Shown: one piece after another, positions 19,551 to 63,030 of the stretch
Layout: each line of letters starts with the position of its first letter
Position numbering within the stretch: the stretch's first letter is position 1
From: an uncultured bacterium
Lineage (GTDB): Bacteria; Oederibacteriota; JAAXVQ01; JAUVAV01
Length of the DNA stretch: 64,000 bases
Assembly: GCA_963710755.1 (NCBI GenBank)
Contig: CAVQBK010000013.1
Coordinates: forward strand, 320,001-384,000
Direction of reading: 5' to 3'
Program-made: the position numbers and the translations under genes
The notes under the pieces: model-generated
What the model was told of the DNA's origin: nothing
Databases searched by the model: none
The model's input: the letters and a program-made list of their open reading frames with translations, nothing else

Positions 19551-19554
19551 GAAT

Positions 19555-38225: not shown

Positions 38226-38939
38226 TTATTGTTTATTGTAATTAATATTCAGTTGTTGTTCCCGGCCGTTCTTATCCATGATGTTTAATTTTAATTCTTT
38301 TTCCGTGGGTATTTCCACCACGCTTTCCCACCACTGGTCTTGCTGGCCCAGGTTAATTTTACGTGGTTTCTGTGGTTTTTGTCCCTTGAAGACCGTGCTG
38401 CTGTAAGAGGCACCTACTTCTACCTTGCCTTGCGGATTGTAAAAATCGACCAATCCTTCCCAAACCGTGAGCTGCACTTTTTCATCAGGATTAACCTTTA
38501 GCTCCAAAACCGTGCCTTTGATGGCGGCTACAGCCGATGGGGTATCGATTTCCAAAGGGTGCTTCTGTTTTTTGATGCTGGCCCATAACTGACCAAGCAG
38601 CAATTTTAACCGATTAACTTTTTGGTCCGCCTGATTATCAATCAAAACCAGGTTGGTCTTTTCATGTAGTTTGGTGATGCTGCCGTCATTCAAGACCAAG
38701 GCAGCCCGGGATAATTCCGAGGTTTTGATGAGATCGCCGCCATAAAGCAGCATGCCCTTTTGGGCATCGATCTCGTCCTTAGTGCCTTTTCGCAGCACTT
38801 TGACAATCCCGACTTTGACAATAATCGTAGCCTTGGCCTGAGCAGCTGCGGTATTCACGGCCTGTAGCCATGACGGCGCGGCCGCCAAGGTATAGGCCAC
38901 GGCCATCATTATGAAGAATAATGCCTTCCAGGATTTCAT
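38226..38939 (-). CDS. Periplasmic FecR-domain protein
   Basis: Signal peptide; LYGGDLIKT, LNDGSITKL, IDTPSAVAAIKGT, VWEGLV motifs. Confidence 0.85.
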   Translation of the reverse strand: MKSWKALFFIMMAVAYTLAAAPSWLQAVNTAAAQAKATIIVKVGIVKVLRKGTKDEIDAQKGMLLYGGDLIKTSELSRAALVLNDGSITKLHEKTNLVLIDNQADQKVNRLKLLLGQLWASIKKQKHPLEIDTPSAVAAIKGTVLELKVNPDEKVQLTVWEGLVDFYNPQGKVEVGASYSSTVFKGQKPQKPRKINLGQQDQWWESVVEIPTEKELKLNIMDKNGREQQLNINYNKQ

Positions 38940-39098
38940 CGTTGCCCTCCAATAGAACCGTTGTTAATTAAAATACCCTGCCCGCAGGCAATTGGTTACG
39001 AGTGGAATTTTATTTTATTTTATTTTTTCCCATTCATCCCGGGCAACCTGGAATTGGCCAGGCCAGAGCCCCGGGAATGAACGGGAACGTATTAATGC

Positions 39099-40112
39099 TC
39101 ATCGCGTTGAATCGAATTGCTGGCTTATAATTTTGGCCGAGCCGGTCTGTAATTGCTTTAACAGGTCTGCCAAATCTTCACTACTGCTGGAAACAGCCAC
39201 TGCCCGGTAAGGCTGCAGCCCTTTAAGCAAGGATGCATCGGTGATCACCTGTCTGACCACACGATCTGCTTCTTCCGGAGAAACGGCCGCGCCGCTTTGA
39301 TCCGGGGCCAGGAGTTTAAACCAGGAGATAGCGGATCGGCCCAAAGAGCCTCCAATGGGTTGACCAAAAACATCATAAGCGATCACTTCCCAAAAGTATT
39401 GCTTATCCTGCTCCAGAGCCCGGGCCTGGGCCTCATAGGTAATTTGGGTGGACGCCACCTTGGCGCTGCGCCAGTAGGTATTAATTTCCGGATCATGGTT
39501 GGGACTAACCACGACTTCATAGCTGTGCGCACTGGTGGCCGGCATCCAAGTGAAGGTCGGCAAAGCAGTATTGACCGCCACGTTCCGGGGAAAGATGGGT
39601 ACGGCCGGGCGGTTCAAGGCGGAGGAAGGCGTAAACAGAGCCAAGGCCACGGTGTAAGGCGGACCGCTCTGGGGCGGCAGTGGCGTAAGCACGATTTTAT
39701 AGTGTCCCATGGGTAAGACGCTACCCCCGCCGGACAGATTTAAATTTGGTTTATAAGCTTCATTGTATTGGGGCTGACTGTTACTCATGTCCATCTGGCT
39801 GGCATTGTAACGGTTTTGGCCGATCTTCAATTCCCCTACCCCAACATTAATCCGTGCCACCTCGGTGGCACCATCCTGGATGGCCAGAGAAAATTGCCAA
39901 TGATCGGCTTGTTCATCGGACAGGGCGCTGAGCATCACCACATTGGGGTTGACCACCAGCGGCTGGCTTTTGAGTACGGCATCGTAAATATCCAGCAGCA
40001 AACGGGGCGCCACGGATACGCCATTGATCTGAACCAAAGCCCGAGCAGACAACATTGCCGCCATGGACAGCAATAGCGCCAATCCAGCCATCGTCAGGGT
40101 ACGTTTAATCAT
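39099..40112 (-). CDS. Secreted hypothetical protein with Ig/Fn3-like domain
   Basis: Signal peptide; PTFTW...SYEVVV...LEQDKQYFWEVIAYD. Confidence 0.65.
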   Translation of the reverse strand: MIKRTLTMAGLALLLSMAAMLSARALVQINGVSVAPRLLLDIYDAVLKSQPLVVNPNVVMLSALSDEQADHWQFSLAIQDGATEVARINVGVGELKIGQNRYNASQMDMSNSQPQYNEAYKPNLNLSGGGSVLPMGHYKIVLTPLPPQSGPPYTVALALFTPSSALNRPAVPIFPRNVAVNTALPTFTWMPATSAHSYEVVVSPNHDPEINTYWRSAKVASTQITYEAQARALEQDKQYFWEVIAYDVFGQPIGGSLGRSAISWFKLLAPDQSGAAVSPEEADRVVRQVITDASLLKGLQPYRAVAVSSSSEDLADLLKQLQTGSAKIISQQFDSTR

Positions 40113-40148
40113 GGGAACAGTTCCCTCCTTATATTAGTCATGACCTTG

Positions 40149-40748
40149 TTAAAACAATTGAGCTATTTCCAAAGCAAAGCCTTGGGATCTCACTTTGGCC
40201 CTAAGCTTGGGTCCGCCGGTCCTGCCAAGGTTCTTGTTGTCTTCTTCCACCGCCAAGGGCGCACCGGTCAGGTCATAAAGCCAGGACGATAAAAATAGCG
40301 CAACGCCGCCCACAGCCAAACCAATGCCACGGGAAAGCCGGGTGGTATTGGAAAGATTATTAATAAGGGTTTCGTCACTGACGCCGCTGCCGGTGTTGTC
40401 TTGAACCACTGCATAAATATCGCGGCCGCCGTTGTACGCCATGGTCAAAGCTCCCAACTCCACCAGGAGCAATATGGAACCTGTTACCGGCCGGCCGGCA
40501 TAGAAGTGCCCTGACCCCTGGATCACGATTCCAGGAAAAGTGGCCAAAGCTATGGCTGTACCAGGATCTTTCATGGATGACGGGGACGCTGTTTGCGGCA
40601 GTGTCGAGGTTGTCGCAGCCGACCAAGTGGCGTCAGCCAGCAAGCTGCTGTTGGGAAGATCAGAGGAGGCGGCATGAAGGGACACCGTCAAGGTCAGGAG
40701 CATGGGGAAAAGCCACAACAAGGAAAAGCATGGTGCTTTTTTAGTCAT
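40149..40748 (-). CDS. Hypothetical envelope protein (TM2/DUF5683-like hairpin)
   Basis: Signal peptide, KDPGTAIALATFPG...GSGHFYAG, WLYDLTGAP, terminal Phe. Confidence 0.65.
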   Translation of the reverse strand: MTKKAPCFSLLWLFPMLLTLTVSLHAASSDLPNSSLLADATWSAATTSTLPQTASPSSMKDPGTAIALATFPGIVIQGSGHFYAGRPVTGSILLLVELGALTMAYNGGRDIYAVVQDNTGSGVSDETLINNLSNTTRLSRGIGLAVGGVALFLSSWLYDLTGAPLAVEEDNKNLGRTGGPKLRAKVRSQGFALEIAQLF

Positions 40749-40801
40749 GGTAACCTCAGGAAAAGTTGGTGTTGCCAGTTTAGTATAGGCCAGGAGCCTT
40801 G

Positions 40802-42718
40802 TCAATTATTTGCTGGGAGGTCAGTTTTTAACTGCTTGACCCCAAATACCGAAAGGGCTTGCGATTTACCCTTGACTGTCACCGCCTTAAATTCCACGGC
40901 CTCCACCCATGCTTTGACCGCGGCGTAAGTGGACGAAGAAATCAGGATCGTCTCTCCCAATTCCTTGGTTTTACTTTCCAGGCGCGAGGCCACGTTGACC
41001 GTATCTCCGATAACCGTATAGCCCATGGCCTGCTCCGATCCCATATTGCCTACAATGGCTTCCCCGGTGTTGATGCCAATACCGATCTTAATGGGCAGTT
41101 TGCCTTCGGCCTGCCAGCGGGCCTGCATTTTCTCCAGGGCCTTGGTCATATCCAAAGCACATTTGACCGCCCGGATAGGATCATCGCTGTGGGCCACGGG
41201 CGCGCCGAAAATGGCCATGACCGCATCGCCGATAAATTTGTCCACCATGCCGTCATACTTGAAGATCATGTCCGTCCAGACCTGGAAGTATTCATTGAGC
41301 CGCTCCACCACCGCTTCCGGAGGCAGCTGTTCCGACATGGTGGTAAAGCCCCGGATATCGGAAAAAAGCACGGTTACAATCTGTTTGTTGCCCCCCAGGC
41401 GAAGTTTTTCCAATGGATTATGCACCAGTTGTTCCACCACCTTGGGAGACACATAGCGGGAGAACATGGCTTTGATGCGCCGGTTTTGATATTCTTCGGT
41501 AATCAGTCTCACCACCATGACCAGCACATAAGCCGTGGCCATGGTCAGCAGAGGGATCAAGGCGGGAATGAGCACCTTGGTTTGCAGAAATATCATAGCC
41601 CCGACAATGATATAGGCGGCCATATACACAAAGAGTACCAGCAGTCCTTTCCAGGGTTTCAGCCGTATAGTGGTCATGGCCACCAACCAGGCCAATAGAA
41701 AGAGCAGCAGGTAGTTGAGTGCTTCCGGGGAGCGCGTAAGGTAATTATTGTTTAAAATGGTATCGAGGACGTTGGCGTGGATTTCCACTCCGGACATCAA
41801 GCCCGCAGCGCCTGACCCCTGCCCTGCCGGAGTCAGAGCCCGGTAATAAGGCGTCACATGTAAGTCCTGAGCTTCGGTAAAGGTGGGCCCGATTAAAACA
41901 ATCTTGCCTTTAAACAAGCCTGTCTCTTTAAGACCGGAAAAAATATCAGGATCTACAACATTAGCATAAGAAATGGTTTTAAAGTGGCCGGCCCCGCCCC
42001 GGTAATTAATGAGCATGCGGGCACCGGCCTCCACCGGAATGGTCAAATCACCATAAACCAGGCGATTGGGGGTCAAACGGAGAAAAGGTTCCTTAATTTT
42101 AAGGTAGCGGGCCACGATTCTTAACCCAAAGGACTGGTAAAGTTGATTTTGGAACTTTTTAAGCAGCGCCGCATGCCGAATAACCCCGTCATCATCGGCC
42201 CAATAGTTGACGTAGCCTACATGAGTCTTGCGTTCATCTATATCGGGGATAGCTTTCACGTAGCCGGTCTTGAGCTCATTGTGGGTGCGCTGCGTATAAA
42301 ATTTGCTGCCCAGCACGATCCAGGCTCGGGAGCGTTCAATAGCCTCTCCCAGCAAGCGATCCTGATGGCTTAATTCCGCCTTACTCTGTTCAGAGAAAAT
42401 CAAGTCAAAGGCAATGACGTGCGCACCGGCCTGGGAAAGATTATCAATGGCTTTGGCAAACATGGCCCGAGGCCAAGGCCAGCGCACGTTGAGGTCCTCC
42501 ATGGACTGATCGTCAATGGCTACAATAATGATTTTATCATCGGGATAGGGCCCGACGGGCGAGCGCAGAACAAACCGGGCGTCAATGAATTTACCCTCAA
42601 AGGATTGACTGAAATCAAAATGATACAAAACAGCAAACAAACCGCCCACCAGCACGGCAATTAAAAGGGAGATGCGGTTCTTGCCCCAGCTTTTAAGCCA
42701 TTCTCTTAAACGGTGCAT
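40802..42718 (-). CDS. CHASE2-domain class III adenylate cyclase
   Basis: CHASE2 motifs (IIIVAIDDQS, RWPWPR, FDLIF, DDDGVIR, GVEIHANVL), 3 TMs, cyclase motifs FSDIRGFT, DKFIGDA, YTVIGDTVNVASRLE. Confidence 0.93.
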   Translation of the reverse strand: MHRLREWLKSWGKNRISLLIAVLVGGLFAVLYHFDFSQSFEGKFIDARFVLRSPVGPYPDDKIIIVAIDDQSMEDLNVRWPWPRAMFAKAIDNLSQAGAHVIAFDLIFSEQSKAELSHQDRLLGEAIERSRAWIVLGSKFYTQRTHNELKTGYVKAIPDIDERKTHVGYVNYWADDDGVIRHAALLKKFQNQLYQSFGLRIVARYLKIKEPFLRLTPNRLVYGDLTIPVEAGARMLINYRGGAGHFKTISYANVVDPDIFSGLKETGLFKGKIVLIGPTFTEAQDLHVTPYYRALTPAGQGSGAAGLMSGVEIHANVLDTILNNNYLTRSPEALNYLLLFLLAWLVAMTTIRLKPWKGLLVLFVYMAAYIIVGAMIFLQTKVLIPALIPLLTMATAYVLVMVVRLITEEYQNRRIKAMFSRYVSPKVVEQLVHNPLEKLRLGGNKQIVTVLFSDIRGFTTMSEQLPPEAVVERLNEYFQVWTDMIFKYDGMVDKFIGDAVMAIFGAPVAHSDDPIRAVKCALDMTKALEKMQARWQAEGKLPIKIGIGINTGEAIVGNMGSEQAMGYTVIGDTVNVASRLESKTKELGETILISSSTYAAVKAWVEAVEFKAVTVKGKSQALSVFGVKQLKTDLPANN

Positions 42719-42797
42719 ATGCGCTCCTTTGAATTGACATAATAACATTCGCCCATATTTATCTTAAAGTTAGGTTCCTAGCCGCCCTGTTAATCAC

Positions 42798-46375: not shown

Positions 46376-49300
46376 TTACGCCGATCCGCCGCTGGTCAAG
46401 GCTTGCCGTTTAAACAACTTGTCAACCAGTTCCCTGTTTTCTTCCCAAATCATGCCATCTTGAGGTGCACTCATGATACTCATAAATTGTCCCAATCGCC
46501 CCCGTGAGTAAGCCGGCAACACGGCGGGTATATCAAATTGCATCTTCAACCCCTGCGGCGCCGCGCCGGCATAGCGCTGGCCAATGGTCGTGGTTTTGGC
46601 ACCCAGTTGGCGGAAAAATTCATTATAAAATTCCAAAGCTTGCGTCAAGTCTTTATCAGCTTGGGTGGCCTGATGCGCCTGACCCTTGGCTTTAGCCAGT
46701 ACCAGGAGGTGATGACGCTCCTTCAGCATGTCCTGCAGGCCCAAGGCCAAATTCAATAAGGCCTGAGTACGCTGTTGTTCCTCCTTGGCCAATAAATAGT
46801 CCATGGTATAAAGTCCCAATCCTTGTGTATTTTGCACGGCTTCCATCTCGGCCATCGCCTGAGCTTGTTGTGGCAATTGTTGCAGCAGGATTTTAAGGGC
46901 GGCTTTGGGATAAGCCCGCTGAAGACGGCCGGCGACAAGATTGTTAACCACATTGGGATGATTCAGCAGATAGCCGTAAAATTTGGCCAGGCCTCGGGAA
47001 GGCCAGGCCCGGTTTAGGTCAACGGCTGAAGGCAGGTTTAGCTTTTGGCCGCGAAATAATTGAAAGGACACTTGATTAAACAGCTCAGGCGCCCGGCCCT
47101 GTAACACCGCCTGTACCTGCGTTTGCGGCCCCTGCACTTCATAGATATGGGGCAGGTAAAAATCAAGACCAGCCAAAAGCTGCTTCTCCCCCCGGGCATC
47201 CTGCATGACCGCCAGACTCTTATCCGAGGTGTCGTCACCGGTTTCCAGCAACTGATGAGTAGGATTCAGCCTGACCAGCACACCCCGGATGTCCTGAGAT
47301 AGGATCTGGCCGGCTTCAACATCTTGGCGGTCTTTTAAAACCACCGCCTGTTTTTCAGCGCTTACCGCATGTTGAGCCAGCACGCCCAGAGCCTGCAGTC
47401 GGGTTAGTAAAGGGTGTGCCTGGGGCAGGTCTTTCAAGGCCTGTCCCAGCAGCTGGATCTTGGCATCAATCATGCGCTGCAAGGCTGGAGAAACGGACAT
47501 CATCGACACTTGGGAAACAGATTCATCTCTTTCGACAGTCCTGGCCAGGGGCAGGTACGCTTGATCCTGAGCCGGTTGTGATTGCGCCTGCATTAATTCT
47601 TCCAAAACTCTGGTTTCAATCAACCGCTTTTGTTTTTTAACCATGGTTTGCGCATCGCGCAACAACTGGCCCAAAGGTGAAGTTTGGTTTGCCATCACGG
47701 CCAGCAAGGATTCGGGCTGGGCGCGCAGATGCTGCACCTGGGCATGCCGCAGCCACTGGTAAAGGTCAAAGCTGTTGTCTTGATGGAGCTGAGGCACCAG
47801 GCTCCGCGCTTCCTGTTGCAACAGATCCAGCAAACGCAGCAGGGTGACGGAATCCACGGCCGGCAGCTCGGTGCCAAAGCCTTGCAGGTAATCAGTTCTG
47901 GTGAGATGACCGGTCTTTTTTTCCTGAATGACAGCCACCGATTTTAAAACCTGATCATAGTAGCCCAAGCTGATCCGTAAGCGCTGCAATGTATTGCTGG
48001 CCTTGATCCGCCAATAGGTCAGGGCCCGCTGCTGCTCCACTTTAAGAGCCACAGAGCGCTTTACCCACCCGGCTAAAAGTGGTACACGGCCTTCATCCGC
48101 ATTGAGGGCGCTAATGAGCATAGCTTGCTGGGCCGGCGTTAGGGATAGTCGACCCAGTGCAACATTAAGTTGGTTGGGCATAAACTCAGGCGCTAAATCC
48201 TGCAACCGCGACAATTCATTGGGCAGAAAATGATGCTCTGCCACAAAAGCCGCCAACTTCTCCACATTACCCTGGGTCCAATCAGGCCTTTGCGGGCTGG
48301 CCCAGGCCCCTGTTGTAAACAGAACCAGACTAATCATCATCAGTTGCAGACCGCGGCCGATCACACGTATCAGGCGCAAGCTACCCGGGCTGATTTTAGA
48401 AATAGGCGTATTGATTTTAAAAGCAGCGGAACTAAGTGATTTGACCAGAGGCATGGCCTGAGCAGCTTCATGGCGCATGGTCACAATCCCCAAACCTGCC
48501 GCCATCATCAAAATTGAGGTCAGGCCATTGGAATCGGCAAAGAGCATCCATAAAAGGCCTGTGGCCAGCATGGCGGCCGTAAACACCACCGCTAAAGAAG
48601 TAAATTGCAGTATCACCTGTTTGCGGTCATTGGCCGTGGCCGGCCTTTCTTTTCCACTTATATCGTCATAGACCCGGTGCCAGTGCAACCAGGTAAAGAG
48701 TCCTGCCGTGGCTCCAATCCCAGCGGCCAGTAAGGCCAGCGGCCAAGCTAAGGCCGCAAGGGTCACGCTGCCTGCCATAAGGGTGCTGATTAAAGGTGCT
48801 GTCGCCAAAGCCATGACAGCGCTTAGCAGCACATCTTCTGTTTTTTGGGTAATGGTTTTTTCCGTACGGTCTTGGAAGATGCCGAAGGTGAGCAAATGGA
48901 TAGCCTCTTTAAGCACAGGGCTGGTATGGCGGGCCGAGGCCGGGGCCCAGTGATCCTTAAACTTATCAAGCTCGATTCGTCGTGCGTTATCACCGGGGGC
49001 GATACTTAACTTAGTGGCCCAATAGGCCAATTCGCCTATAGTTTTTGCCCTCTTTCCGCCTTCTTTAGAATAACGGTCATAAAGGCTCAGGATAAGGTGC
49101 ATGTCTTTTAAGAATCGGCTAATACCTGAAACAGGAGGGTGCTCTTTCCAATAGGACAAATCGCCTTCGGTAACCGTTAGATTTCCCCACGTTTGGCTGA
49201 GTAATGGGCTTCCCAATTCTTCCAATGATGACTGATCAACGTGCTCTGGCTGGGTTACTTTAAATACTCCTTTAAAATTCTCGAGCGTTTGATTGCCCTT

Positions 49301-52300
49301 CAGAATCTCGTCTGCCCACCAGCCTATATCGCCGGGCTTCTTACCCCGAATATCGGATTGAGCATACAGTTCAAGCAACTGCTGCATGATAACCAGGAAT
49401 TGCTTATAATTTGTTCGATGCTGCTTATCATTAGCCCAATACTTCAGATCGCCTGAATGGATTTGAATATCACCATAAGCGCGCTTTGTAAGATCCTGCT
49501 CCAAGGAAACAATGTCCGCTGACGGTACCTCGCCTGATAAAACAAGTGGTGTAGCTGTTTTAACGGAATTGGCTTTCATGTTCGCAATTTCAGCCAGGAT
49601 GTCTTTGGCCCTTTGCTCCAATTGTCTCGGATCCACGGCCACTGATTGCTCTACTTGTTGGATGGTGGTATCTCTCTTTAAATTTCCCAAGGTCCCCCTT
49701 CCGGACATTTCTAAAATAAAAAGCCCCAGGTCCCAACTGGTGGTGGTTGATGCCTTTTGGCCGTTGGCGACATTCAGGCTGTCAGCTATGTCCTTAGTAA
49801 AAAGACCAGCTTGATTCATAACCTCCAGACTGGTCATGGCCTGCTGGGGATAGAGTTGAAGAAAAGGCGCCACGGCATAAGGCTGAACCTGGTTCAGCTC
49901 CACTGACCCCAGTCCATGATACTTGCCGTCATCACCATAAGCTGGTGAGGTACCCCAAGCCTGATAGCCATGGGCTTTGGCATAGGCTTGAAACACGCCG
50001 CCCATTTCCTCCAGCATTTGCAAAGCCTTGCCGTCGCGGATGAATATATTGGGCAAGCTGTAGAAAAAGGCCGCCATATTTTCCGTGCCGCCGCCGCCAT
50101 AACGGGGGATGGTGAAGCCCATGATGGTTTCCTGCGGCACATGGGCATACCTGACCTGATTGTAAGCAGAAGGCTGCAGGGCACCGGCCATAATGGCCGC
50201 CAGATAAGCCGAGCTGTTGTCCGTAGGGCCTTCCAGGATCCAGCTTCTGTTCCAGGGATCGAGGTGACCTTTTCTGATGGCCTGCCAATCGTCAGTAGTC
50301 AGGCCTTCTTTAGTGCCGCCCAGCAGGCGCCCATTTTCAGTGACCACTTTATCCCATTGGTACCGTCCGGCAATGGTAGCGGCCAGTTCGGTGACCTCTT
50401 GGTTGATACCCGCATGCTTGAGCCATTGCAGCGCCAAGGCCAGATTGCCTTCATCAATAATGCTGTTCTTGATTTTAACTTTACCGTTTGCTTGTTCCGC
50501 CGATGGAATGCCTTGCCTATCCCTCACATTCAGCCAAGCCCAGGTAAAGGGGAACCCGTAAAGATTATATTTCTGCTGATAGCCATCGAGCATCTTCAAG
50601 GCCTTCATCAATTGGGCCAGCGATTCTTTACTTTTATTATGCTGATAATCCAAAGCCAGCACCATGAGGCCAATGCCGATGTTGCTGGTGCTGGTGTGGC
50701 CTGCCAGCGCGCCATTGCGGTTGTTACGATTATCTACCGGCCAGCCGGTGTTGGGATCGATGAGAGACTTGAAATCCCTGATCGCCTTGGCTTGCAATTG
50801 TTGGACAACCTTTTTTCCCTGAGCAGTTAATCTTTGGTAGGTATACGTTTGGGTCGTGGAAGTCCCTTTGGCAAAACTTTGATTGACCCCTCCGGTCCAG
50901 GGGCTGACCGTCAAGCTGAGGCTGAGGAGCAATACTCCAAAAAGTCCGAGCATGCGATGCCACCAGTGCTTTTTCGACTGGTCTTTACCCGGTGACAGCG
51001 CTGTGCCATTAGCCAAGGGAAGTTGATTTAAAATGGCGTTCCCCTCTTCCAAACGTTTAATGGTCAGCGATTGGGGTAAGCCCAATTGGTCGCTGAGCTT
51101 GTCTATTTGTTTGAGCATGGCCAGATAACGATATCCTCCGATTTCGCCCTGCATGGTATGGCCACCCACCCAAAAAACAGTTTGTCCTGTTAAATAATGA
51201 AGCAGCATCATCCATTGCACATCGCGAGAGGCAATAGCATCCAAAATCTTCTTTATCCGGCGTTGGGTGTACCGATCCTTGAAGTCCAATGGCTTTTCAG
51301 TATTTTTGGGATCCTTATTCTCCAGGATATTTTCCAAGTCATTAAGTGAGAGTTGATGGAGTTCTATTCCTAACCGCTTCTTTAAAAGATCATCCAAATG
51401 CAATTCCCTGGCCATGGCCATGATGCCCTCCACGGTGCCCGTGAAAGAAGCGCTTTGGCCTGGAAACGCTTGTTTGGACGTGGCTAGTCTATGGAGCCCT
51501 GAGCTGTTGAGGGTAAAGCCGCCGCTGTGGGCAAGGCTTGCTTGGAATTGGCCTTGTCGAAACAAACCGGCCCTCAAACGTTCCCCAAAGTTCACCACCA
51601 TGCCCGACACCTCCTCTTTTTTGGAGGTGGCAACAGATTCAACTTCAGGTGTTGGGGGGCGGTTGGTCCAACCAGACGTTACTGCCACCGGCCGGCCTTT
51701 TCCATTGTCACGCCGGAGTGCTTGTGCATGAGTTTTAAAATCAGCAGTGATCATGCGCGCCAGCAGCTTTTCCTGACGGCGGGTTTGTTTTGGTCCCAGT
51801 CCCAAAATGTCCACATTCAGGTTCCGTGTCCCATAGCCCATGGCCACGGAACGGGCAAAGAAAGGAATCAGATAATAGGAATACAGCGCTTTTTGGAGGT
51901 CCCGGTCCGCTACCACGTCAGGATGAGGCAATTCCGCCTCCGCTGATTTGCCCTCAGCTGTGGTGAGCCGCACGGTCATGCTTTTACCTGTAGCTTGTAC
52001 TACCTCCCGTACCGCCTGGGCAGCATCAGCAAAAAAGACGTCATTGTCTTTGCCTTGGCTGAAAATGGACAAGGCCTGCCCAATGGTTTTCCCAAAAATC
52101 GGCGACAGATTATTAAGGTCGGCACCCCTGGCATAAGCATGCCATATGGCTTGCTGATCCATCGCCTGCCACTCACCCTTTTCATTGGCGTATTCCATTT
52201 CAACGCTATAGGCCCCCGGACGGGAAGGTTTCCAGCTTATCTCCCAGACCGACAAGTCCTGAGGCAACCCATGCGCAAGCGAAGCCTCCGTGGCCTTGAT

Positions 52301-55300
52301 TGGTTTGGCCTTCAAGATGCCGGCGACTTGCTGACCCTGTTCCTCTTTAACCACATAGCGAACACCTTTACAGTCTTTGGGAAGAAAAACAGCGAGATGA
52401 AATTTTTGCCCTATTTGGGCCATCTGGCGCTGTCCCTGGTCCAAAGGCGGATCAAAGGCTGGTAAAAATAATCGGTGTTGCAACAGTTGCGCCAGACGCT
52501 TTTCCTGGTCACTTAAATCTTCGAGTTTTTCACCTCTGGCAATAGCCAAAGCACTCTTCTCTGCCACACCTTCAGCCGCAGCCCATAAGTCCAGAATGTC
52601 CTTGGTATACGTCTGAATATCCCCGCGTCCTGTTTGCTTTAACAAGCCCTGGATAAAGGTCAACTTTTGAAGTAATTCAATTTCTTCTCGTGTCCTGCTA
52701 TTTTCACCTCCCAGGAGCGCATTGAGCCGTTCCACGGTGATATGGTGAGGCAGACGAATGTCAAATTTTCCGGCATGGGCATTGGGGTCATTGATACGGA
52801 ATTGAGGCGGCAGGTTAAAAAGTCGGAAGCTGAAAGCAAAGCCAAGCCCGCCCGGCTGCTCAGCAGACGCCAGAGGTAAGCCCCATGCACCTGTTCCGCT
52901 ACTTCCGGACTATCCAGATCATGGAGCTCCCCGTCCAGTCCTTCGAAACCATCGGTCTTGAAATCATCGATAACCTTTTGCTTGCTTTCCCCGTTCATGG
53001 CAGCCCACATGGCGCTGAAGGTCACTGAATCATGGAGTGCGCCCGTAGCCAGCATACGGCTGGGCATGTGGTCAGGATAATAAGGATTTAGGCGGTCACC
53101 CCAGGGCTCGCCCGTAAGCGCGAAGATATAAGGCGCAAAGCCATAAGCCCCGCTGGTCTCCATTTCCGTTTGTGCTTGGTGGGGCACCACACCCAGGGTT
53201 TCATAAACCAGCGTCACACCGAGGGCCTTGGCATAGCGTTCCAGCTCAGCCAATAAGGTCGCCGAGTGGGGTGTGGGCTTAAAATAACCAAATTGTAACC
53301 GGTCCGATTCCTTGGGATCCATGTCAAAAAAATAAGTTTTCCAAAATCCTTGTGCTGATTGTTCATGCCCTTTTTTCCCTTTGATAGCATCAGCCGGAGT
53401 GGTTCGCAGGTAATCCTGCACCCGGGCATCATGTTTGATTTTCTGCTCCACGCTTTGGTATTCCCGGCGCCAGGGTGAATCTTCAGGTAAGGCTTTGTCG
53501 TAATCCTGGCGCGGTACGGTTCGGGCAATGTAAATGGCATTATCAGGACCGATGCGGCCATGTTCATTCATCAGCCAGTGCAAGGCATCAGCCGGTAATT
53601 GATTTTCCAAGTTGGCTGGCAATTGACGGCGCCACTGTTTTAATTTGTCCATATAGAGCGCTTGGGCTTTGTCGGCCGCGGCCTGGCGCAAGCGCTCCTG
53701 CTCTTCGTTGTCCGCTGCAGCCGATATGGCTGCCATGGCTTCTTGGCGTATGGCCATCATCTCCTTAAAAATCCCCAGGTCTTTCCAGGTCACATCACCT
53801 TCCGTGAAATAATAGCTGCGGAACAAGGCGAGTGCATGATCAATACGAATATACCGGCCGTATTTAGCCATGGCCTTGATCTGGGCTTTGAGGGCGTCCA
53901 TGGACTCGGATAAATACATCTGCCAGTATTGGGCATTGGGGTAAGCTTCTTCCGCAGGCACGCCGCGGCTGACGAGACGCAGAAAACCGAGCTTCTTTTT
54001 CAGCCCATACCAGGCCGGATGTTTCCAGGGATCGGCTTCACTGGGAGCAATACCCTTGTCCACCGCCAATTCAATGCCTTTGCTGCGGGCATAAGTTTTC
54101 AACTCATCATATTGCGCATCCGCGATAAATTGAACAAAGGCCTGAAAAAGAATCTGATCAGCCAGTCTTTTTTTGGCGTGACGCAAAGATGCCGGTTCCC
54201 TGGCCCATAAGCCTTCCTCGCCTGCTTCACATATATCACCTTTCCAGCGCTGCCAGGCCCAGTCGCGCAAGTCATCCAGTTCATATACTGTTTTCCCTTC
54301 CTGCTCCGCTTTTTCCTTAAGCTCATGGCGGCGCTGATTGTATAGGGCCTGAAAATCCGAATTTTCTTGACGGCGTTTTTCAGCCAGGACCAGTTGTCTT
54401 TCCCTGGTGGCAGGCATGGCCTTCCTATTATTCTTAGACCATGTTTGGAGGACCTCCAGTTGAAGAGTCTCACCATCCAGATATTGACCATCTTTTTCCC
54501 AGCGGGCCACTTCCTTGGCCATAAATTCTTGTTTGAGCAAATGGTAAAGAAGATCGTCTTCTTTATTCTTCTTTTCCTTTTTCCAATAAGTCTCAAAGGC
54601 TTGGCGCAGGTGCTGATTTTTTTCATTGTCCGGGTAAGCGGCCAAGGCTTGCCAGACCGATTGCAGCACCTCCAAGGTCAAGGCCCGTTTCTGATCATAT
54701 TGGGCCCGTTCAGCCTGACGCCACTTTTTGACGGCATCATAATTAAAAACTAATTTCCCTACTGCTCGCGGAGCATAGACGTGATTAAATACCCAGGGCA
54801 GATTGATAAATTTGGGATCCTTCATTTCCTCGCTTTCATAGGCATAGGGCGAGTTGCCGATAGGCGGCCAAAATAAACTTTCCATCATCATGGCTTTAAA
54901 GCCCATTAGTTTATGAAAATCCACCACCTTTTTCATGAGGATCAAATCCATGATCCCCATGTCCTCTTGTGAGCGCCAATGGAAGAGATAATCAATAGTG
55001 GCCACCACATTACGTAAGCCGGCCCGCGCCGGGGAAATAAATTTTTGGTAGGGGAAGAGTTTTCGATACAACGCATGGTGGGTGATGGCGCCGGCCAGAT
55101 AAACCGCGCTACCAGTCAGGCTGGTGGCAAGGATATGGTGCGGGGCCAACATCAGCACGGTTAGGCCGACCACAGCGGACAGCCCAAGGCTTACGGTAAT
55201 TTTAATGAAATTTAAACGGATTTGTTCTGTTTGATCCGAAGAGGCTGGAACTTCTTTATGCTCTGTTTCATCCCAAATGGTGGTATGCAGGAATGCAAAC

Positions 55301-58300
55301 AAGGGCTTGATGGCCAAATCATACACCCCGTAAGCCAATGCCAGCGATGCCGCCAACGCCGCCAGGAACCAGCCCGTCCCCACGCCGAGTACCACCGCTA
55401 TAATAGCCGGCGCCATGGTTGCTCCCAGCAGGGTAAAGAGCATCATATTCTCAATCTGCTCAGCTATGTCCAGCTCCACTTTATCCGACAAACGCCCAAA
55501 GGTAAATTTGTGCACCCAGGCTTTGATTTTGGGACTGGTCAGGCGGGGCGATTCTTTTTCCGGCTCAACAGCACCTGAGCTGAAAGCAGCCGCCAAGTCA
55601 GGATCTTGGCGCAAGGCCAACAAAACCTGTTCCGGTTCCAAGCGGGCATTAATCATTTCCAATATGAGTTGCCGCTGGATTTCATTAAAACGTTCATTGT
55701 GGGTTTCTTCGCCATGACCTTCGCGCAAATGGGCATTTTCATGCACCAACGTTTCCATAATATCGTACAGCTTGGCATAATCTTCCTGCGTGGTTGATTG
55801 GTGGTTCATAAACCGGTTCATCCAAGCGAGCCAATCGCCAATGCTATTTTGGTTAAAATTAATCCAGTCAGGACCATAGAAGGCTATGCGTTTCGTGGAA
55901 ACCGTCATGAACCCTACTTTATAAGGACCATAGCCATGGGTCTGCATCAAAGGCTGCATAAGATCCTGACAAAGTTTGGCCAAAGCATGATGCGCTGCGG
56001 TGAGCTCGCTTTCACGCAGAGGCGTGGGCCGGTCATCCTCAATCGTCACTTGTCCAAATCCTTGGTGTTGTGGCTTTTGTGCTTCTTTCAGCAACAGGGC
56101 AAAGGGTTCACTTAATTCTTTCAGGTCCACTGGGCTGTCACGGCGGTCGGCCTCAACCGCCATACAATGGAGATCGTAGAGGGAAAGTTTTTTACCCTCA
56201 CCAGGTTGTTGGACTTTTATTCTGGTGAGCAGTGTGGTGAGTTGATCCGAATTCTGAATAAACTGAACTTCCCGGTCAGTCAAATCTTCCCACCGTCCCT
56301 GATTAAGCTTACCGGCCAGAGTCTCAGTAGAAATGTAATGACGGACCAAATGATCATATTTGTACACCAAATCCAATGGCCGGTCATAATTCAACGTTGC
56401 TGCCGCGGTCTCCAGCACCGCGGCCAGGATTGCTTTTTGCAGTCGTGGCAAATATTTTTCCGTCTCCGCCAGCCCGCCCCGTTCCCGGTCGGTTACAATG
56501 GAATAAACATGTTGTTTGAGGCTGACCGGCAGGCTGAGGCTCAATCCTTGTGTTTTGAGCATGTCTTTTAGCGCTGCCGGCACCAAGGCCCACAATTCAG
56601 GGTATTGATTCAAGTCCATGACAAAATAGCCGGCCTGCAACACGCCTGTTTTCCCGGAAGCCCGTTTAACCACTTTGATCTTTTCCTGGTCCTGCCAGTC
56701 CACCTCAGCCAAGAGGGCCGCCTGTTCCGAAATATTACGGCCGTTGAAAGTAATGGTCAGCCTTCTTTTTTCATCAACCGACCCCAAGGTGCCCGCGTAG
56801 AGTTGCAAACTGTCGCCAATAATAGCTGTTTCCAAATCAATGCCGTCTTGATTCTGTTCATAATCCCCGGGGTACTCCTTGATCCAAGTATCGACGCGGG
56901 TACCTTCAAACTGGCCTTCAAACTCTGCGAAGCGCTCAACCTCCCAGGTAAAACCGCCTTGGCCATTGGGTATTTTTCGGACCTCCAAAATTTGAAAGCG
57001 GCCACTGCCTGATTTTCCGGAGATCACACGAACCCGGTCCGCGACCGTAAGATTTTTGTACCATCCCCGGCCGTAATATCCTTTGGAGGGATCAGCGCCT
57101 TCTTTCGCACCGGTCCTATCCAAGGGAAGCAGGAAGTTCAACATATCTTCCGTATCCATGCCAATGCCATAATCGCGGGTGCTTAGCACCAGTTGGGTTT
57201 TGCCTTTGGTTTGAACCGGCACGGCTGTGACTTCGATGCGTTGGGCTCCGCCCTTTTCCAAGCTGGCTTTATCCGCATTTTGAATGTTCTCTCTTATCCA
57301 TTCATAACCTTTTCCCATGCCGCCGCGCGCGATGTCTTCTTCCGTTTGAGCGTAAGCCTCATTGCCTTTAAGCGTTTGCTTTAAAGCCGCCACACTTTGA
57401 AAGATCCCCAAATTGCGGCGCACCCCGGCCAGCACTGAAAGTCTAATTTTTTTAATAACGTCCAAGCTACGGCCCCGCGGCAGGTTCAATTGGCGTGGGC
57501 TCAAATCTTCCATATCAACATCGCCGCGCAAATAGCGGATCAAAAAGGCGCCTTCAGCAATTTCATCCGGCCCGGTCTCTGGGGACAACCATTCCCAATG
57601 AGATTGCAAGCCTGTAATCATTTCAAAGCCTCTGTCCTCTCCTGCCTCCCCTGCAGCTATTACATGCAACCAACGATCCAAAACTTGATTAAAATACAGG
57701 TTATCGCTTACCACTTGCCCCAACCCATCAAGCAACTGGCCCACGGCCCTATGATGCTGCCGGAATAACCTACCGCAGATTTTGCTCAATGTTTCCTGGT
57801 TTTGTGGATTAAGACGTTTGATCTCTTGGCCGTCGGCAAAGGGCAGGAGCCAATCCAGTTTTTCCATATCCGCCGCACTCCAATTGTAGTGGAGCAGATT
57901 ATTTATAAACCGCGATTTCGCCTCCGGTGACAAGTGGTTATAAAATTCGTCACTCGGCTCAATAAAAGGACCGTCGGCAATATTCTTAAACCAATCCAAC
58001 GGTTGAATGGTGATGGTTTGGTTCTGCTTAAATATCACCAAGTCCGATTTGAGAAGATCAATAAACTCTCCCTCCAGTCCCGTAAAAATGGCGGTTGATC
58101 CCTCCAAACGGAACAACCTTTTTACCCCCCACTCCCCGATAATGGCATAATTGACGCCGCCAATGGAAAAAGGATTCCATGCATCGGGGATATTGCTCAT
58201 GTTCTCAACGTGGGTAAAATACCCATCACTTAAATGAAACAAACTCCAATGCCGTCTATGCTTGAGCCACATATAGATTTCACTGCCCACCTGCACGGGG

Positions 58301-61300
58301 TTGGTGGCTTTCTCCATCTCGCCCAATTCCTTAACCGGCTCAAACCGGTCATGAATTAACCGGTATAGCCTTGTTTCCCCATTTGTTAATGCGCCTAAAA
58401 TATAAATTTCTTGGCCCACGGCCACAGGTTTATCGTGATATGTAAAAGCAACCTCCGCCAGTTCTTGCACTTGAACAAAACGCCCCTGAACCAGCCGATA
58501 TAACCGGGCATCATTTGCTGGGCCGGCAATCTCATAGGTTTCCCCGCCCACTTCCACCGGCGTCCCATACCCATCCTTATCTTTCAATTCCACAATTTCC
58601 ACAAACCGTCCGTCAGTTAATCGATAAAAATGCTGCGAATCATCACTTAAACTGGTTAAGTTTACATAAATTTGCCCTCCGGCACTTACAGGGATACCAA
58701 TCTCACGTGCATCCGCCAATCCTTGGGTTAATTCGAACCGTCCATTAGCCAGCCTGAATAAGTAACTGTGATGGTCTGAAGAGCCAATGAAAAAAACTTC
58801 TTCCCCAATTTGAATAGGGCCCTCTTTAAGGTTTAATCTTCTTAATTCTTGTACCACTTCAAATCTACCGTGAGATCGTCTATAAATGATGTCTTCAGCA
58901 CCTTGCCTAACCGCTACATAAGTTTTTCCGCCTGCCTGACCAATCGGGTATATTATCTGCGCTGGTTTGAGATCAGGGACCACTTCGAAGCGACGGCCTG
59001 ACCATTGATATAAGCTCATGCTGCCCGGCTCGCCGGCGCCTACCAAGATATCTTCGCCCACTTTTTCAGGCATTTGGATAACATCCAAGCCGTGAAATTC
59101 AGTCAGTTCCGAAAATGCGGAACCAGTCCAGCGATAGAGATCATAAACAATGCCGCGCTGCATCCGTAAAAACAAATCACCATCAATTTCCGCCACGTCG
59201 TAGCTTTCACCGGCCAATTCGGTTTTGAAAGCATCGGCTATGGAAAAACCATGCACTGCGCAAAAGTCATCTATCTTCGACAAACGTTCCGCGGCCTTTG
59301 GAGCCAGTCCGGTCCGGCCCGACCGGAAATAATTGAACTGCAACAATTGCCGAATATTAACCGGATAATCATCAAACTTAAACGTCATGCCCGCCGGTGA
59401 TGCATCGGCTACGCCCCGGGGGACTGAGCCTCCGGCATGCAGAGTAGCTTCCGTTCCTGGTTTGGTGCCATAGCCGGTCCAAACCCCGAAGAGTAAATTC
59501 AAGAGCAGCGGGCCTTGCCCCGCTAAGGCTTTATCAACATAGGCATAATAAATAGCCTGGTTTAAAAGCAACAGCTTGCCTACCCGGGCAAAGGGGCGTG
59601 TCAAGTTGGCGATCCATACCGATTTGCCGCTGGACAACACAGGCTGGGCATCGATGCCTCTTGGATCGAATGGGAGCAGTCCCTCCTCAACCGTGAGGGG
59701 CTTTTTACCTGCATAGGCCTCGGGTGCGATGGCTTGCTGCTCCATGGCGGGTAAAAAAACATAGTCCATTTCTTTCAATCGGCTGGCAGCCTGATAAAAT
59801 CTTTGCCGCAGGTGACGCGCGATATTAAGTTCTTCACCCTTGGTCTTGGTCCGCTGTGATTGCTGTAAGCGTTCGGCGGCCAGATAAACAGCATTGACCA
59901 CGGGCATCATGCTTTCCGGATTATTGGAAAAATTTCGGAGCAGATTGTCGGCTACGGTCTGAAAAGCTCTGGCTGTCACCTCGTCCAGCAGGATTTGCTG
60001 GCGTCCCTCCCTTTGATCGCAGGCCGTGGGAAGATCAATCACCACTTCTTGAGCCAAGGCGGCACCTTCTATTTCCAAGGTCTCTACTTCCGTGCCACCG
60101 ACCAGTAAATAAACTTTGCTGGTCTTACCCACGTGCCTGGACCAGTAGTATTCTTCCCCATTGGCGGTCCAATCCTCCTGGAGTAATGCCGACTTCAATT
60201 GATCACCAGTTCGGTTGGTGGAAACTTCAGGCACCGGTAAGGCTTCCATGAGAGTTGACAATCCTCGGCCCTCATCAAAAGGGGCCACCCCCTTTCCTGA
60301 GTCACGCACATGTAATTCCCGTCCATCCTCGCTCAGCCAATAGCGCACGGCTTTCTCGCCCAACCGATAGGTTACCGGTTGGCCTGCCTGGTCAAAGGGT
60401 GACAAATCATTAACCAGGACTTGGCCGCTTTTCCCCTGGAAGATGAGACCGCGCCGCGAGGTACCCAGCTTTTTTCTGATGTAGTTTTCCAGACGCTTGC
60501 CATCCAAGGGCTGCTGGCGGTGCAGCACCACCTCGGTGCCCGGGCCCTGGGTGGCTAACAGGGATTCGTGATAAAAATTAACCCGGATGGTACCTCTTGT
60601 TTTTACGAATACTGCTTTGTAGCGCGTACGTCGTTCCTTATCAGGTATAGTGATAAACTCCAGGCGGTCGCCTTCGTTCTGCAAGAGCCCGATGGCTTGA
60701 TAGACACCGCGGCCAAAGCGGCCAATAGCGTCACCCATGGCGTCAAAGCCATTGTTGATCAATTCCACCAAAGCTTGATCAGCCGTGGTGGATTGGCGTT
60801 TCATGAGCGTATCCAAGCGTTCCGGCTCAAGAGGAAATCCTTCGGCCATGCATTCCCGGGCAAGGTCTACAAAAACAGGCCCAATGCCTTCCTTGGGCTG
60901 CGAAGTCTCAAGGGCTTTGATAAACCGTTCCCGATAGGCTCGCTGTTTTTCTGCTGGCAAATCACGCAAATGCTTGATGAGACTGACATATAGAGCAAGA
61001 TCATAGCCGTCTTTGGTGTAGAATTGTGATGGGGATTGCTTCTCGGAAAGTTTAGCTTTGGGCCGTCGCGGTAAAACCCATTTAACTAAAATTATCAGTG
61101 CCAATAAGATCGCCGCGGTCCAAGTTGCCTGGCTGGTCAGACCGCCTGCCAAAGGTGATTCCCAAAGCGGGATGTGAGGTAAAAAACCCGTGGTTCCGGC
61201 CATCAGCAATGAAGCCGGTGACAACGCCGGCAGAGGCCCTTGTAATTTTATTTTCATGGTTACCCAGGCTTGCTGCAAAACCCTGCTTAGGGATTCCAGA

Positions 61301-63030
61301 AATGCACTCGGTGCATGCAAGTTGATTTTTTCATAAGCCGATTGATCGGCAAACACCGCCGCATAATGCTGACCGGGCAGCGCTTTCAAAACGACTTCAG
61401 CACCGGGCTCAAGTCCATACGCTTGCAGCGGCCGGTTGGCCACCACGACTATTTTTTCTGCTTCACCAACCTTGGCTAGAAAAGCACGGACGCCTTTAAC
61501 CGGCGCCTTTAATTCCTGCCATTGCGTAATGTCAAAGCTCAGTGCCTGTTGAGCGCTGACTTTCATGGCCTCTGCACTGGCCGTGGAAAAAAGCAAGGTT
61601 CCCCAAGCCATGCGTTTAAGTTTATTGACGGCCAGGGCTTGCAATTGATCGGCCACAGCCAGAATGGTCTGGTTTTTAGCCAGCAATTGTTCCAGCGGGG
61701 TACGTCGATTCTGCAACAACTCAAAATAAGGATTAACCACGTCCAGACGGGAAACCTGGGGGCGCACCAACAAATAAGTAATATTTCGTTTTCGCAATTC
61801 CTCACTTACTTGCTCAGTATGAAACCCGCCATTAATCATCACGGCCAGCGATTGCTGCTGCGTCTGCATGGCGCTGAGTAGATTATCCACAAATTGCACG
61901 CTGCGCTCGTCCGCCAGGTGATAAAATTTCCAAACCTCATCCAGAGCTTGGTCAAGTGACAGAAGGTTTAATTCCAAGGGCAGCGGTGACATATTTTTTG
62001 GGCTCGTAGCATTAATAAAGTCAAGAAAAGACTGGGTGCGATAGTCGCCGCGATGGCCACGGAAATCAGCCAGTTCCTGCTGGGTGGCGGAAATATTGAG
62101 AAGCTTTTCCATGTTATCGAGGCGGCGGAGGTGCTCATCGAGCTGCTTCTCAAGGTCCGTCGTGTAAAGCCTGATGCGCAAGGCTTGATCAAGATGATCC
62201 AATTCCTGATAGAGTTTTTCCGGATTGGTCTGTGGTCCAAAATAGGTTTGATTCCATTTCAGAAACTGTCGCACTTGGGGATAGTTGTTGAGGTCCAACC
62301 GTTGGCGCCTGGCCTGCCCGTCAAGCTTGGCCGCATAGCCCAGAATATCCAGGTGGCCGTCCCGGTATTTTTCGCGAATCTGATCCAAGCGTTTAAGTTC
62401 CGGTGAATAGAGGGAAGCTTTCAAAGTGCCCAAAGCTTCCCGAAGGTCATAAATCAGACCTTGGGTTTCACTATTTAAAAATTGGCGAACCGTCTTTAAG
62501 CTTTCCTCATATAAGGCCTGGCTTTCAATGCCTTCCAACTTGACGGGAGCCTGACTGGTTACGGCCACATAATCAGCACCACTTAGCCGGCCTTCCTTAA
62601 CCAAATAATCGCTCACCACATTTCTAATTCTTTTCAAAGGAAAGTTGCGGAGCAAACTAGGATTGACAGGTCCGCTGGCGCCTTCGATGGCCACCAAATG
62701 CAACCCTTGGGTTTTGATCAGGTGTTTCAAGGTGGCGGCAATATTCTTTTGCACTTCATAATTGCAGTGCAGATCCTGGATGCAAATAACGGTTTTATTC
62801 CCGCCTTGAAAGGCGCTCTCAATATGAGCCCATTTCTCCGGCACTGTAACCGCCCGGCCCAGGTGATGAATCATCAGCGGCTGTTGGCCGGCGGTGTAGA
62901 GCCCTGGCTCAAAGGCCCAACTCATGATAGGAAATAAAAAACTGATGGTTATAATTAAGGTACAGGTTTTAATGGCCAACTGTCGGCCACCCTGGCGCCA
63001 AGCTAAGATGGACCATAGGAAATTTTTCAT
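46376..63030 (-). CDS. Giant multidomain membrane-anchored protein (about 5,550 aa when ORFs 52660-63030 and 46376-52735 are joined across one frameshift): 2 GHKL ATPases, beta-propeller-like repeats, HExxH peptidase, GH77, GH144/GH189-like domain, repeated TM modules
   Basis: ORFs of 3456 aa and 2119 aa overlap. Adding one base to the A5 run at 52817-52821 restores DFFNLPPQFRINDP (the GH77 C-terminal RIN.P motif) and fuses them. AGGAGA RBS precedes 63030. Confidence 0.8.

Follow-up and report, generated by a model that had tools for sequence, protein, structure and literature searches.

The DNA examined here, called the window throughout, is a stretch of 64,000 nucleotides (nt) from an uncultured bacterium of the candidate phylum Oederibacteriota (assembly GCA_963710755.1, contig CAVQBK010000013.1, positions 320,001 to 384,000), and the element in question is a giant gene on its minus strand. 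The giant is best explained as one gene for an inner-membrane protein of about 5,551 amino acids (aa), broken in this assembly by the deletion of 1 nt or by a base-calling error. With about an even chance of being right, we propose that its product is a membrane-tethered, two-sided poly-enzyme that acts in and at the envelope of the cell that produces it, and not a secreted digestive device. In related strains the gene runs in a single frame, two of its modules are a GH77 domain and a beta-1,2-glucanase-type domain, and its N-terminal domain, the head, defines a protein family with variable cargo. The topology, the activities and any coupling between the modules we infer.

The head and its family

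The head was aligned over ~440 aa (aa ~20-460) with 28 paralogs from the same genome, and the mean column identity over the 29 sequences was 43%. Invariant in all 29 heads are H69, C70, Q75, E97, G98, R357, G382, G383 and H385 (alignment numbering; adding 19 gives the numbering of P0001, the 3,456-aa product of the upstream half of the gene), as well as the motifs DLHC, EG and GGFH, and D67 is kept in at least 90% of the sequences. The order of the residues is D67-x-H69, then E97 28 residues after the His, and then H385 beyond a helical insert. The end of the hydrophobic leader is also strongly conserved in the paralogs: an invariant Pro is followed by a W-A-F-(E/D)-like motif (alignment columns ~30-40), which may mark the cleavage site of a signal peptidase or act as a dedicated signal for sorting.

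An AlphaFold2 model of the head, built from the 29-sequence alignment (pLDDT 83.9, pTM 0.76), had as its best fold match in the PDB the erythromycin esterase EreC (6xcs; E 9.9e-3, probability 0.97, TMq 0.22); further matches were 6xcq, the Ere-like 3b55 and 2rad (Bcr135), and, at rank 7, ChaN (2g5g). Bcr135 (3B55) and ChaN (2G5G) have been placed in the TIKI superfamily, the active members of which use the same His-Glu mechanism as Ere, and the essential residues of RRSP are E3900, H3902, E3930 and H4030 (PMC6254334; for this and all other papers cited, our statements refer to portions of the text). Compared by the order of residues and the H-to-E spacing, the head agrees with RRSP. In its best, though weak, fold matches to EreC, Bcr135 and ChaN, and in the series D-x-H, E at +28 and H, the head resembles the TIKI/TraB-PrgY/Ere/ChaN superfamily, and it is probably a divergent, putatively active hydrolase of the TIKI/Ere type. 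It differs from the superfamily by a helical insert of ~200 aa, by an invariant Cys beside the first His, by the thousands of cargo residues fused to it and by the lack of a Pfam or PDB sequence match; in the Pfam scan none of the 29 heads rose above any cut-off. The order of signal, ectodomain and transmembrane (TM) helix presumably resembles that of metazoan Tiki and PrgY.

In the 3.44-Mb genome (13 contigs, 98% complete) tblastn recovered 31 full copies of the head. All of them lie within the first ~130 codons of stop-to-stop open reading frames (ORFs) of 635-9,474 aa, which together comprise 80,801 codons or 7.04% of the genome, and in most paralogs a leader at ~15-23 is followed by a next helix at ~580-870. 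The heads at C4:146702-148000 and C11:5949-7247 have identical tblastn statistics, and their upstream flanks cluster, also with that of C12:5790-7094; these loci are probably unresolved duplicate or near-duplicate contig pieces, and the 31 may include one redundant copy. The other segments of the giant have no paralogs in the genome save three weak or repeat matches.

Within the phylum, the head is present in 15 of the 99 species genomes (E<=1e-10): in all 11 of the taxonomic family to which the window belongs (this genome included), in all four of the sister family, which together make up the whole order of the window, and in none of the 84 genomes of the other 21 families. The head-bearing ORFs of the phylum reach 13,678 aa. 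An exhaustive profile search of 1.84 billion representatives returned 9,692 proteins at E<=1e-3, of which 6,168 also reach E<=1e-30; each represents a cluster at 50% identity. In all of the 150 representatives listed, the start of the head falls within the first ~115 residues, and in 149 within the first 51. The named close relatives stem from metagenome-assembled genomes (MAGs) labelled candidate division FCPU426, Firestonebacteria or Goldiibacteriota. More distant relatives are an Omnitrophica-labelled protein of 3,830 aa (P0113) and an Elusimicrobiota-labelled protein of 4,084 aa (P0111), which were connected to the head by hhalign (probability 99.8-99.9) and keep the His, E-G, Arg and GGFH positions.

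The cargo behind the head is very diverse. Precomputed Pfam annotation of relatives of 1,900-6,048 aa gave at least one domain in 67 of the 120 relatives listed, with PF01326 (PPDK_N) in ten and PF02446 in one of these 120. Also found among the relatives listed were PF00069, PF00113/PF03952, PF00121, PF00162, PF00343, PF00483, PF00534, PF00293, PF02224, PF00990, PF02518 and several methyltransferase families. PF00069 is Pkinase, PF00990 GGDEF and PF02518 HATPase_c, and PF01739 (CheR) is a further family of the cargo. The cargo of the family is mostly of a cytoplasmic type and includes kinases and methyltransferases. Modules of the giant recur in other giants and in other contexts: the glucanase module is found in a 6,616-aa ORF of the related genome G027, and the ROK-like module lies close behind the head in the related genomes G020 and G027. 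Moreover, the genome keeps canonical stand-alone genes for MalQ, a PPDK-type enzyme and enolase, which makes the modules of the giants extra, divergent copies. As to PPDK_N, this genome has five such modules in four head-bearing giants, besides a stand-alone 1,010-aa ORF (C2:128626-129645); the 4,126-aa giant at C1:145408-157785 carries two.

Thus, the hydrophobic leader and the conserved N-terminal domain of ~400 aa that the original prediction had described are both present (the former by hydropathy, the latter with invariant motifs in 29 paralogs), and its view of a modular scaffold with a conserved head and interchangeable cargo agrees with 31 exclusively N-terminal copies in the genome, the diverse cargo and the recombination of modules among giants. 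The paralogs with different middles that it anticipated were recovered with the head as query. As for Omnitrophota and Elusimicrobiota, the proposed link is borne out among distant relatives; the close ones carry the labels FCPU426, Firestonebacteria or Goldiibacteriota.

It is possible, and we put it forward tentatively, that the head marks a class of bacterial type-I membrane giants that is very widespread and has so far escaped recognition, and whose members couple one conserved periplasmic hydrolase to exchangeable sets of cytoplasmic enzymes. The proposal is drawn from the at least 9,692 clusters, from the 31 genes that occupy 7% of the genome and from the range of MAG labels (FCPU426, Firestonebacteria, Goldiibacteriota, Elusimicrobiota and Omnitrophica). 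If it is true, the shared head would offer one common, testable handle for the whole giant-protein field; published work on bacterial giants deals with sizes and Pfam content, and a testable shared element was not found in the literature searched. A head of ~440 aa, with a confident model and a plausible catalytic set, heads thousands of giants, and one genome of a barely studied candidate phylum devotes 7% of its 3.4 Mb to this family. The cargo, consisting as it does of divergent additional copies of cytoplasmic enzymes on a membrane tether, would fit poorly with the prevailing idea of prey digestion.

Giant membrane multi-enzymes as a kind are already known, and it is the head-defined family, with its fold and scale, that appears new. 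The 2026 preprint of Nielsen & Lui (10.64898/2026.06.07.730766) describes multi-enzyme metabolic cluster giants of at least 10,000 aa from the Omnitrophota class Gorgyraeia, which contain sugar-metabolism enzymes, HATPase_c and ROK, and 94% of which have TM helices or signal peptides. The giant of the window shares with these the many unrelated enzyme domains in one chain, the signal peptide and TM helices at about one per few hundred residues. It differs from them in its size of 5,551 aa and in its named relatives (FCPU426/Firestonebacteria), and no shared N-terminal head is described in those portions of the preprint that were compared, which exclude the supplementary catalogue. The 2023 preprint of West-Roberts et al. 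(10.1101/2023.11.21.568195) reports Omnitrophota giants of >30,000 aa that have numerous TM regions and SecA_DEAD domains, for which prey adhesion and wall digestion were proposed, and the N-terminal regions of which 'generally lack identifiable domains'. The unannotated N-terminal region of published Omnitrophota giants may be the same head. Giant size, many TM regions, glycoside hydrolases, peptidases and an N-terminus without identifiable Pfam domain are common to our giant and these Archaeovorin/Dockerin-type giants. The latter, however, mostly carry SecA_DEAD and, close to the N-terminus, C39 or S8 peptidases; none of these is among the Pfam matches of the 5,551-aa protein. By analogy only, the combination of conserved termini with interchangeable internal enzymes recalls the MARTX toxins, whose effector RRSP has a TIKI fold (PMC6254334); unlike these, the giant has no RTX repeats or cysteine protease domain among its Pfam matches, its TIKI-like part is head rather than cargo, and its TM helices are spread along the chain. 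Elusimicrobiota have been noted as enriched in uncharacterised proteins >5,000 aa (PMC11573180), and FCPU426 as little known (PMC10434106). A published mention of a shared TIKI/Ere-like head was not found in the literature searched; supplementary catalogues, including the Zenodo catalogue of the 2026 preprint, might bear on this point.

Modules on two sides of the membrane

The GH77 domain matches PF02446 at E 1.3e-31 (110.5 bits against a cut-off of 25; aa 2885-3406, profile positions 105-437 of 465), and NCBIfam gave only GH77 models and weak noise on both halves of the protein. Like MalQ, the domain has the RIDH motif, which presumably holds the catalytic nucleophile of GH77: YIRIDHALALFR aligns with LFRIDHFVGLFR of the stand-alone MalQ of this genome. 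Unlike MalQ, it is internal to a giant and far more divergent (61 + 33.5 bits versus 380 in the genome search), with ~190 residues inserted between the motifs; YETLG and ALHD do occur in the sequence, and the insertion before YETLG kept the alignment from reaching them. The ROK-like segment behind it has four homologs in other giants, which carry DVGG, GNDMTGW, GSGIG...GANEGGH and FGGGT. The copy in the window is without the blocks that bear DVGG and GSGIG...GANEGGH, and Pfam ROK, sub-threshold in three of the four homologs, is absent from it.

The beta-1,2-glucanase-type module is confirmed by fold, and it is a predicted enzyme. Its AlphaFold2 model (8 sequences; pLDDT 67.1, pTM 0.72) matched at Foldseek ranks 1-20 only beta-1,2-glucanases, putative glucoamylases or cyclic beta-1,2-glucan synthase (E 5.2e-11 to 6e-6, TMq 0.50-0.62). 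These comprise 8xuj, 3eu8, 4gl3, 4qt9, 5gzk/5gzh, 5z06, 8xul, 8wy1 (the cyclization domain of cyclic beta-1,2-glucan synthase), 6imu/6imw, 8xuk and 8rf9/8rf0/8rfe. With the SGL beta-1,2-glucanases (Chitinophaga 5gzh, Xanthomonas 8xul, fungal 6imu) and 8wy1 the module shares the (alpha/alpha)6 fold at TMq ~0.6; unlike the SGL enzymes it is set between TM segments of a giant, and its identity to them is 12-15%. In sequence searches, phmmer gave a weak match to a 682-aa ORF of the genome carrying PF10091 (putative glucoamylase), DUF3131 and CBM9, and a profile of four copies of the module hit this same ORF at 4.2e-33 (positions 10-369 of 397). A direct match of window positions 49436-50878 to PF10091 was not obtained at E<=1, and three orthologous modules scored 11.7-21.7 bits against a cut-off of 27. 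The phmmer search of P0002, the 2,119-aa product of the downstream half of the gene, against the PDB returned nothing relevant; the profile returned only 8xul (E 0.021), which was later explained by the fold search. At C3:1283136-1286051, ~8 kb downstream of the 9,474-aa giant at C3:1247244-1275665, lie two adjacent stand-alone ORFs of the PF10091 type, one of them with CBM9, and that giant itself has a weak match to the glucanase profile at C3:1267752-1268081.

The calls of two GHKL modules and an HExxH peptidase are plausible at a sub-threshold level of sequence similarity. GHKL-2 scores 18.8 bits with HATPase_c (cut-off 26.4) and 16.6 with HATPase_c_3 (cut-off 25), and it matches Hsp90 N-domains in the PDB at ~6e-4 and the HtpG of the genome itself at 1.6e-4. 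For GHKL-1 the Pfam scan gave no match; its look-alikes in the ESM Atlas carry HATPase_c_3 (score 0.93, 184/256 features), and ELINNGFDA and DSGKG, which we take to be GHKL motifs, are present in the region. The HENAH region reaches 22.1 bits with WLM, against a cut-off of 26 (E 1.8e-4). In the nine-repeat region, EPTP and Kelch matched at chance level only. The two 4-TM modules are homologous (E 1.5e-11) and are found in none of the 14 other genomes of the order, which argues for an internal duplication and not for a building block of the family. For the C-terminal tail we found no paralog in the genome, no Atlas look-alike and no Pfam match; two weak matches in the order have 24-29% identity.

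Most of the domain order that had been read from the translation was borne out by these searches. This holds for the single TM helix after the head, the nine ~45-aa repeats (42-45 aa each), the two 4-TM modules, the GH77 amylomaltase, the internal signal-like helix, the GH144/GH189-like domain and the tandem ~90-aa repeat, the last of which is shared with the 9,474-aa giant. To call the ROK-like segment degenerate was a fair description, considering that the kinase motifs are kept in its homologs whereas two blocks are deleted in the copy of the window. Other claims stood in part. The HENAH motif is there, with peptidase support below threshold; of the two GHKL modules one is supported by sub-threshold profiles and the other by motifs and the Atlas lead; and the helical tail is present, while conservation of it is not supported.

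By hydropathy, the chain carries ~12 hydrophobic helices at scattered places. No lysine or arginine (K/R) lies in the 15 residues ahead of the helix at aa 631-653, and five to six follow it, whereas the helix at aa 4027-4045 has four before and one after. On this pattern, the leader would bring the head to the periplasmic side, and the helix at 631-653 would return the chain to the cytoplasm, where GHKL-1, the nine repeats, GHKL-2 and the HExxH region would lie. The first 4-TM module would then be followed by GH77 and the ROK remnant, again in the cytoplasm. The helix at 4027-4045 would place the glucanase and the 90-aa repeats in the periplasm, and the second 4-TM module and one more helix would lead to the tail. 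The parts would thus be stitched through the membrane by ~12 TM helices, including the duplicated 4-TM module, with alpha-glucan transfer inside, and cleavage of beta-1,2-glucan and a TIKI-type hydrolase outside, all on the two sides of the cell's own membrane. This layout fits the needs of the modules: ATP is required by GHKL ATPases, the substrates of GH77 and ROK in known systems are cytoplasmic maltodextrin and glucose, and beta-1,2-glucanases are usually exported.

Several points weigh against this proposal. The topology is derived from a Kyte-Doolittle scan and the positive-inside rule only, and at the last helix the distribution of K/R is at odds with exactly four TM helices in the second 4-TM module. 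GHKL-1, GHKL-2 and the HExxH region all fall below curated cut-offs. No fold match of the head reaches E<=1e-3, a single one of the 29 heads touches PF04187 (Tiki superfamily, ChaN; E 0.083), and the head profile found only chance-level matches among PDB sequences (PilO, E 0.24). Joint action of the modules is a step that we infer. Finally, the copy in this genome may be truly frameshifted, and a search with P0002 as query found no full-length ortholog in 14 related genomes of the order.

Among the alternatives, a receptor-like function deserves the most attention, although we judge it unlikely. The periplasmic TIKI-like head would bind or cleave an extracytoplasmic peptide or ester signal and control the cytoplasmic enzymes via the TM helix, and the family would be made up of type-I receptor-enzymes in which a single kind of input serves many outputs. 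The order of signal, ectodomain, single TM helix and cytoplasmic modules in most paralogs is in line with this, as are the GHKL-like first cytoplasmic module of the giant and the occurrence in the family of signalling-type cargo (Pkinase PF00069, GGDEF PF00990, CheR PF01739 and HATPase_c PF02518). TIKI/TraB/PrgY proteins are treated as signalling proteases in the title of a reference in PMC6254334. Nevertheless, sensors usually vary the input and keep the output, whereas here it is the head that is conserved, with invariant residues of catalytic type; moreover, Pfam scans found no HAMP, PAS or dimerisation-type linker, and much of the cargo consists of plain metabolic enzymes.

The original prediction had seen in the giant a means of contact-dependent digestion, aimed at the proteins, glycogen and periplasmic beta-1,2-glucans of a prey or host; that it is such a contact-dependent or surface device we now consider improbable. 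This reading would account for the presence in one protein of an alpha-glucan enzyme and a beta-1,2-glucanase fold together with a motif of the peptidase type, and the distant relatives of the head in MAGs labelled Omnitrophica and Elusimicrobiota are in its favour. However, the spread helices and the charge pattern argue for retention in the producer's own membrane with GH77, HExxH and GHKL inside, where ATP-dependent modules, which cannot work outside the cell, would have to be, and the cargo of the family is dominated by cytoplasmic enzyme types. GH77 is in known cases a transferase of the cell's own maltodextrin metabolism. In addition, none of the ten neighbouring ORFs scanned matches a secretion-system family, no recurrent partner gene flanks the 31 giants, and a genome of 3.44 Mb at 98% completeness is not reduced. 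A role against other cells is possible for the periplasmic parts.

There is likewise little to recommend a polyprotein, from which the separate enzymes would be released, once it has been inserted into the membrane, by the TIKI-like head, the HExxH module or proteases of the host: the chain does hold two protease-type modules and discrete modules separated by TM segments, and West-Roberts et al. (10.1101/2023.11.21.568195) raise N-terminal peptidase cleavage as one possibility for Omnitrophota giants, but Pfam scans identified no conserved cleavage motif or autoprocessing domain, and a periplasmic head could not reach junctions in the cytoplasm.

Reading frame of the giant gene

Under translation table 11 the assembly holds two minus-strand ORFs, 52660-63030 (3,456 aa, ATG start) and 46376-52735 (2,119 aa), the frame of the latter being open upstream to 52909. 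The gene starts with the ATG at 63030, which has AGGAG 9 nt upstream, and its stop codon is 46376-46378. The two frames overlap around a run of five T at 52817-52821 (coding strand gacTTTTTaacc), beyond which the second frame continues with FNLPPQFRINDPNAHAGKF.

Public contigs were aligned over window positions 51800-53800, and two of them, from different studies, bridge the break: X1 record 2 (52799-52996) and X2 record 8 (52718-52867). Both have one base inserted behind 52819 (G on the coding strand), which gives GAC TTG TTT AAC and a single frame of 5,551 codons. They are ~98.5% identical to the window over the aligned pieces and differ from it at two to three further bases, which makes them close relatives and not the same strain. 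Runs X3 and X5 do not cover the junction, the 2-kb stretch as a whole being patchily covered by contigs of 151-271 nt, and the flanks of the junction, used as queries, had no match in the related genomes G023-G025. Thus, the extent of 46376-63030 and the ~5,550 aa that had been predicted are exact, with the correction that the assembly itself holds two ORFs, which are bridged by the X1 and X2 contigs.

With 2,119 codons free of stops downstream, the break must have arisen very recently or be an artefact. We rejected programmed -1 frameshifting as an explanation, since the site lacks the form X XXY YYZ and the related strains are plainly in frame. Among the contigs aligned over the 2-kb stretch no joints were found, two loose ends in X3 being a 33-nt partial match. 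The GC content is even along the gene (0.49-0.52), long internal DNA repeats are absent from it, and there is no sign of a chimeric join in the gene, although the contigs are too short to exclude one.

A small chance should be granted to the explanation that the copy in this genome is a recent pseudogene, or is translated as two separate halves, so that the architecture described above would be that of an ancestor or of sister strains. The T5 run of the assembly stands against TTGTTT in the two other assemblies, which are not of the same strain, and frame changes in other giants (e.g. from C3:409593-412829 into 412738-423663) would also be in keeping with it. On the other hand, the downstream frame is free of stops over its full length and has no head or leader of its own, and the loss of one base in a near-homopolymer is a typical assembly error. 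A single gene is kept as the best explanation.

Other head-bearing giants of the assembly shift frame too: besides C3:409593-412829 + 412738-423663 these are C1:312083-321624 (three ORFs) and C3:93067-98188. The open frames overlap by 92-239 nt, with A5 or T5 runs in some of the overlaps, which suggests recurrent 1-nt assembly errors or real frameshifts among several giants.

Coordinates and neighbourhood

Features of the giant gene, in coding order (positions are those of the window; P0002 is the 2,119-aa product)
Feature	Position	Strand	Remark
Whole gene	46376..63030	-	5,551 codons once the 1-nt break is bridged; two ORFs in the assembly
N-terminal hydrophobic leader, aa 18-40	62911..62979	-	By hydropathy; signal-peptide-like
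Family-defining head, aa 20-480	61591..62973	-	Predicted TIKI/erythromycin-esterase/ChaN-like fold with helical insert; probably periplasmic
TM helix after the head, aa 631-653	61072..61140	-	K/R-rich stretch after it; that side probably cytoplasmic
Region with putative GHKL-1, aa 660-1180	59491..61053	-	Motif level and Atlas lead only
Nine repeats of 42-45 aa	57841..59163	-	LYRLxxGRFxxVxEL...; propeller-blade-like
Putative GHKL-2, aa ~1889-2060	56851..57366	-	Resembles Hsp90 N-domain; sub-threshold
HExxH (HENAH) metallopeptidase-like motif region	55651..55794	-	WLM-like, sub-threshold
4-TM module, copy a	54961..55473	-	
Divergent GH77 4-alpha-glucanotransferase domain	52712..54975	-	Large insertions; spans the frameshift
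T5 run, frame break	52817..52821	-	Inside the GH77 domain; one extra base in two other assemblies (TTGTTT, coding strand)
Decayed ROK/ASKHA-like module, P0002 aa 197-572	51020..52147	-	Two blocks of its four homologs deleted
Internal signal-like TM helix, joined aa 4027-4045	50897..50953	-	K/R before it
Beta-1,2-glucanase-type (alpha/alpha)6 module	49586..50833	-	Related to PF10091 and SGL enzymes; probably periplasmic
Tandem ~90-aa repeats	48836..49558	-	Shared with the 9,474-aa giant at C3:1247244-1275665
4-TM module, copy b	48425..48937	-	34% identity with copy a
Last hydrophobic helix, joined aa 4887-4905	48317..48373	-	Signal-like
C-terminal tail of ~640 aa	46379..48298	-	No family found

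The neighbours of the giant are a DoxX-like gene, Yip1, a radical-SAM enzyme, a CHASE2 cyclase and FecR. The last two belong to a row on the same strand (window 38226-42748, minus), in which a gene for CHASE2 with an adenylate/guanylate cyclase (40802-42748) is accompanied by an Ig_Rha78A_N-like ORF (39099-40112) and a FecR-domain gene (38226-38939); this row may be a signalling cassette that is unrelated to the giant. Elsewhere in the window, an ORF of 1,140 aa is found at 16209-19631.

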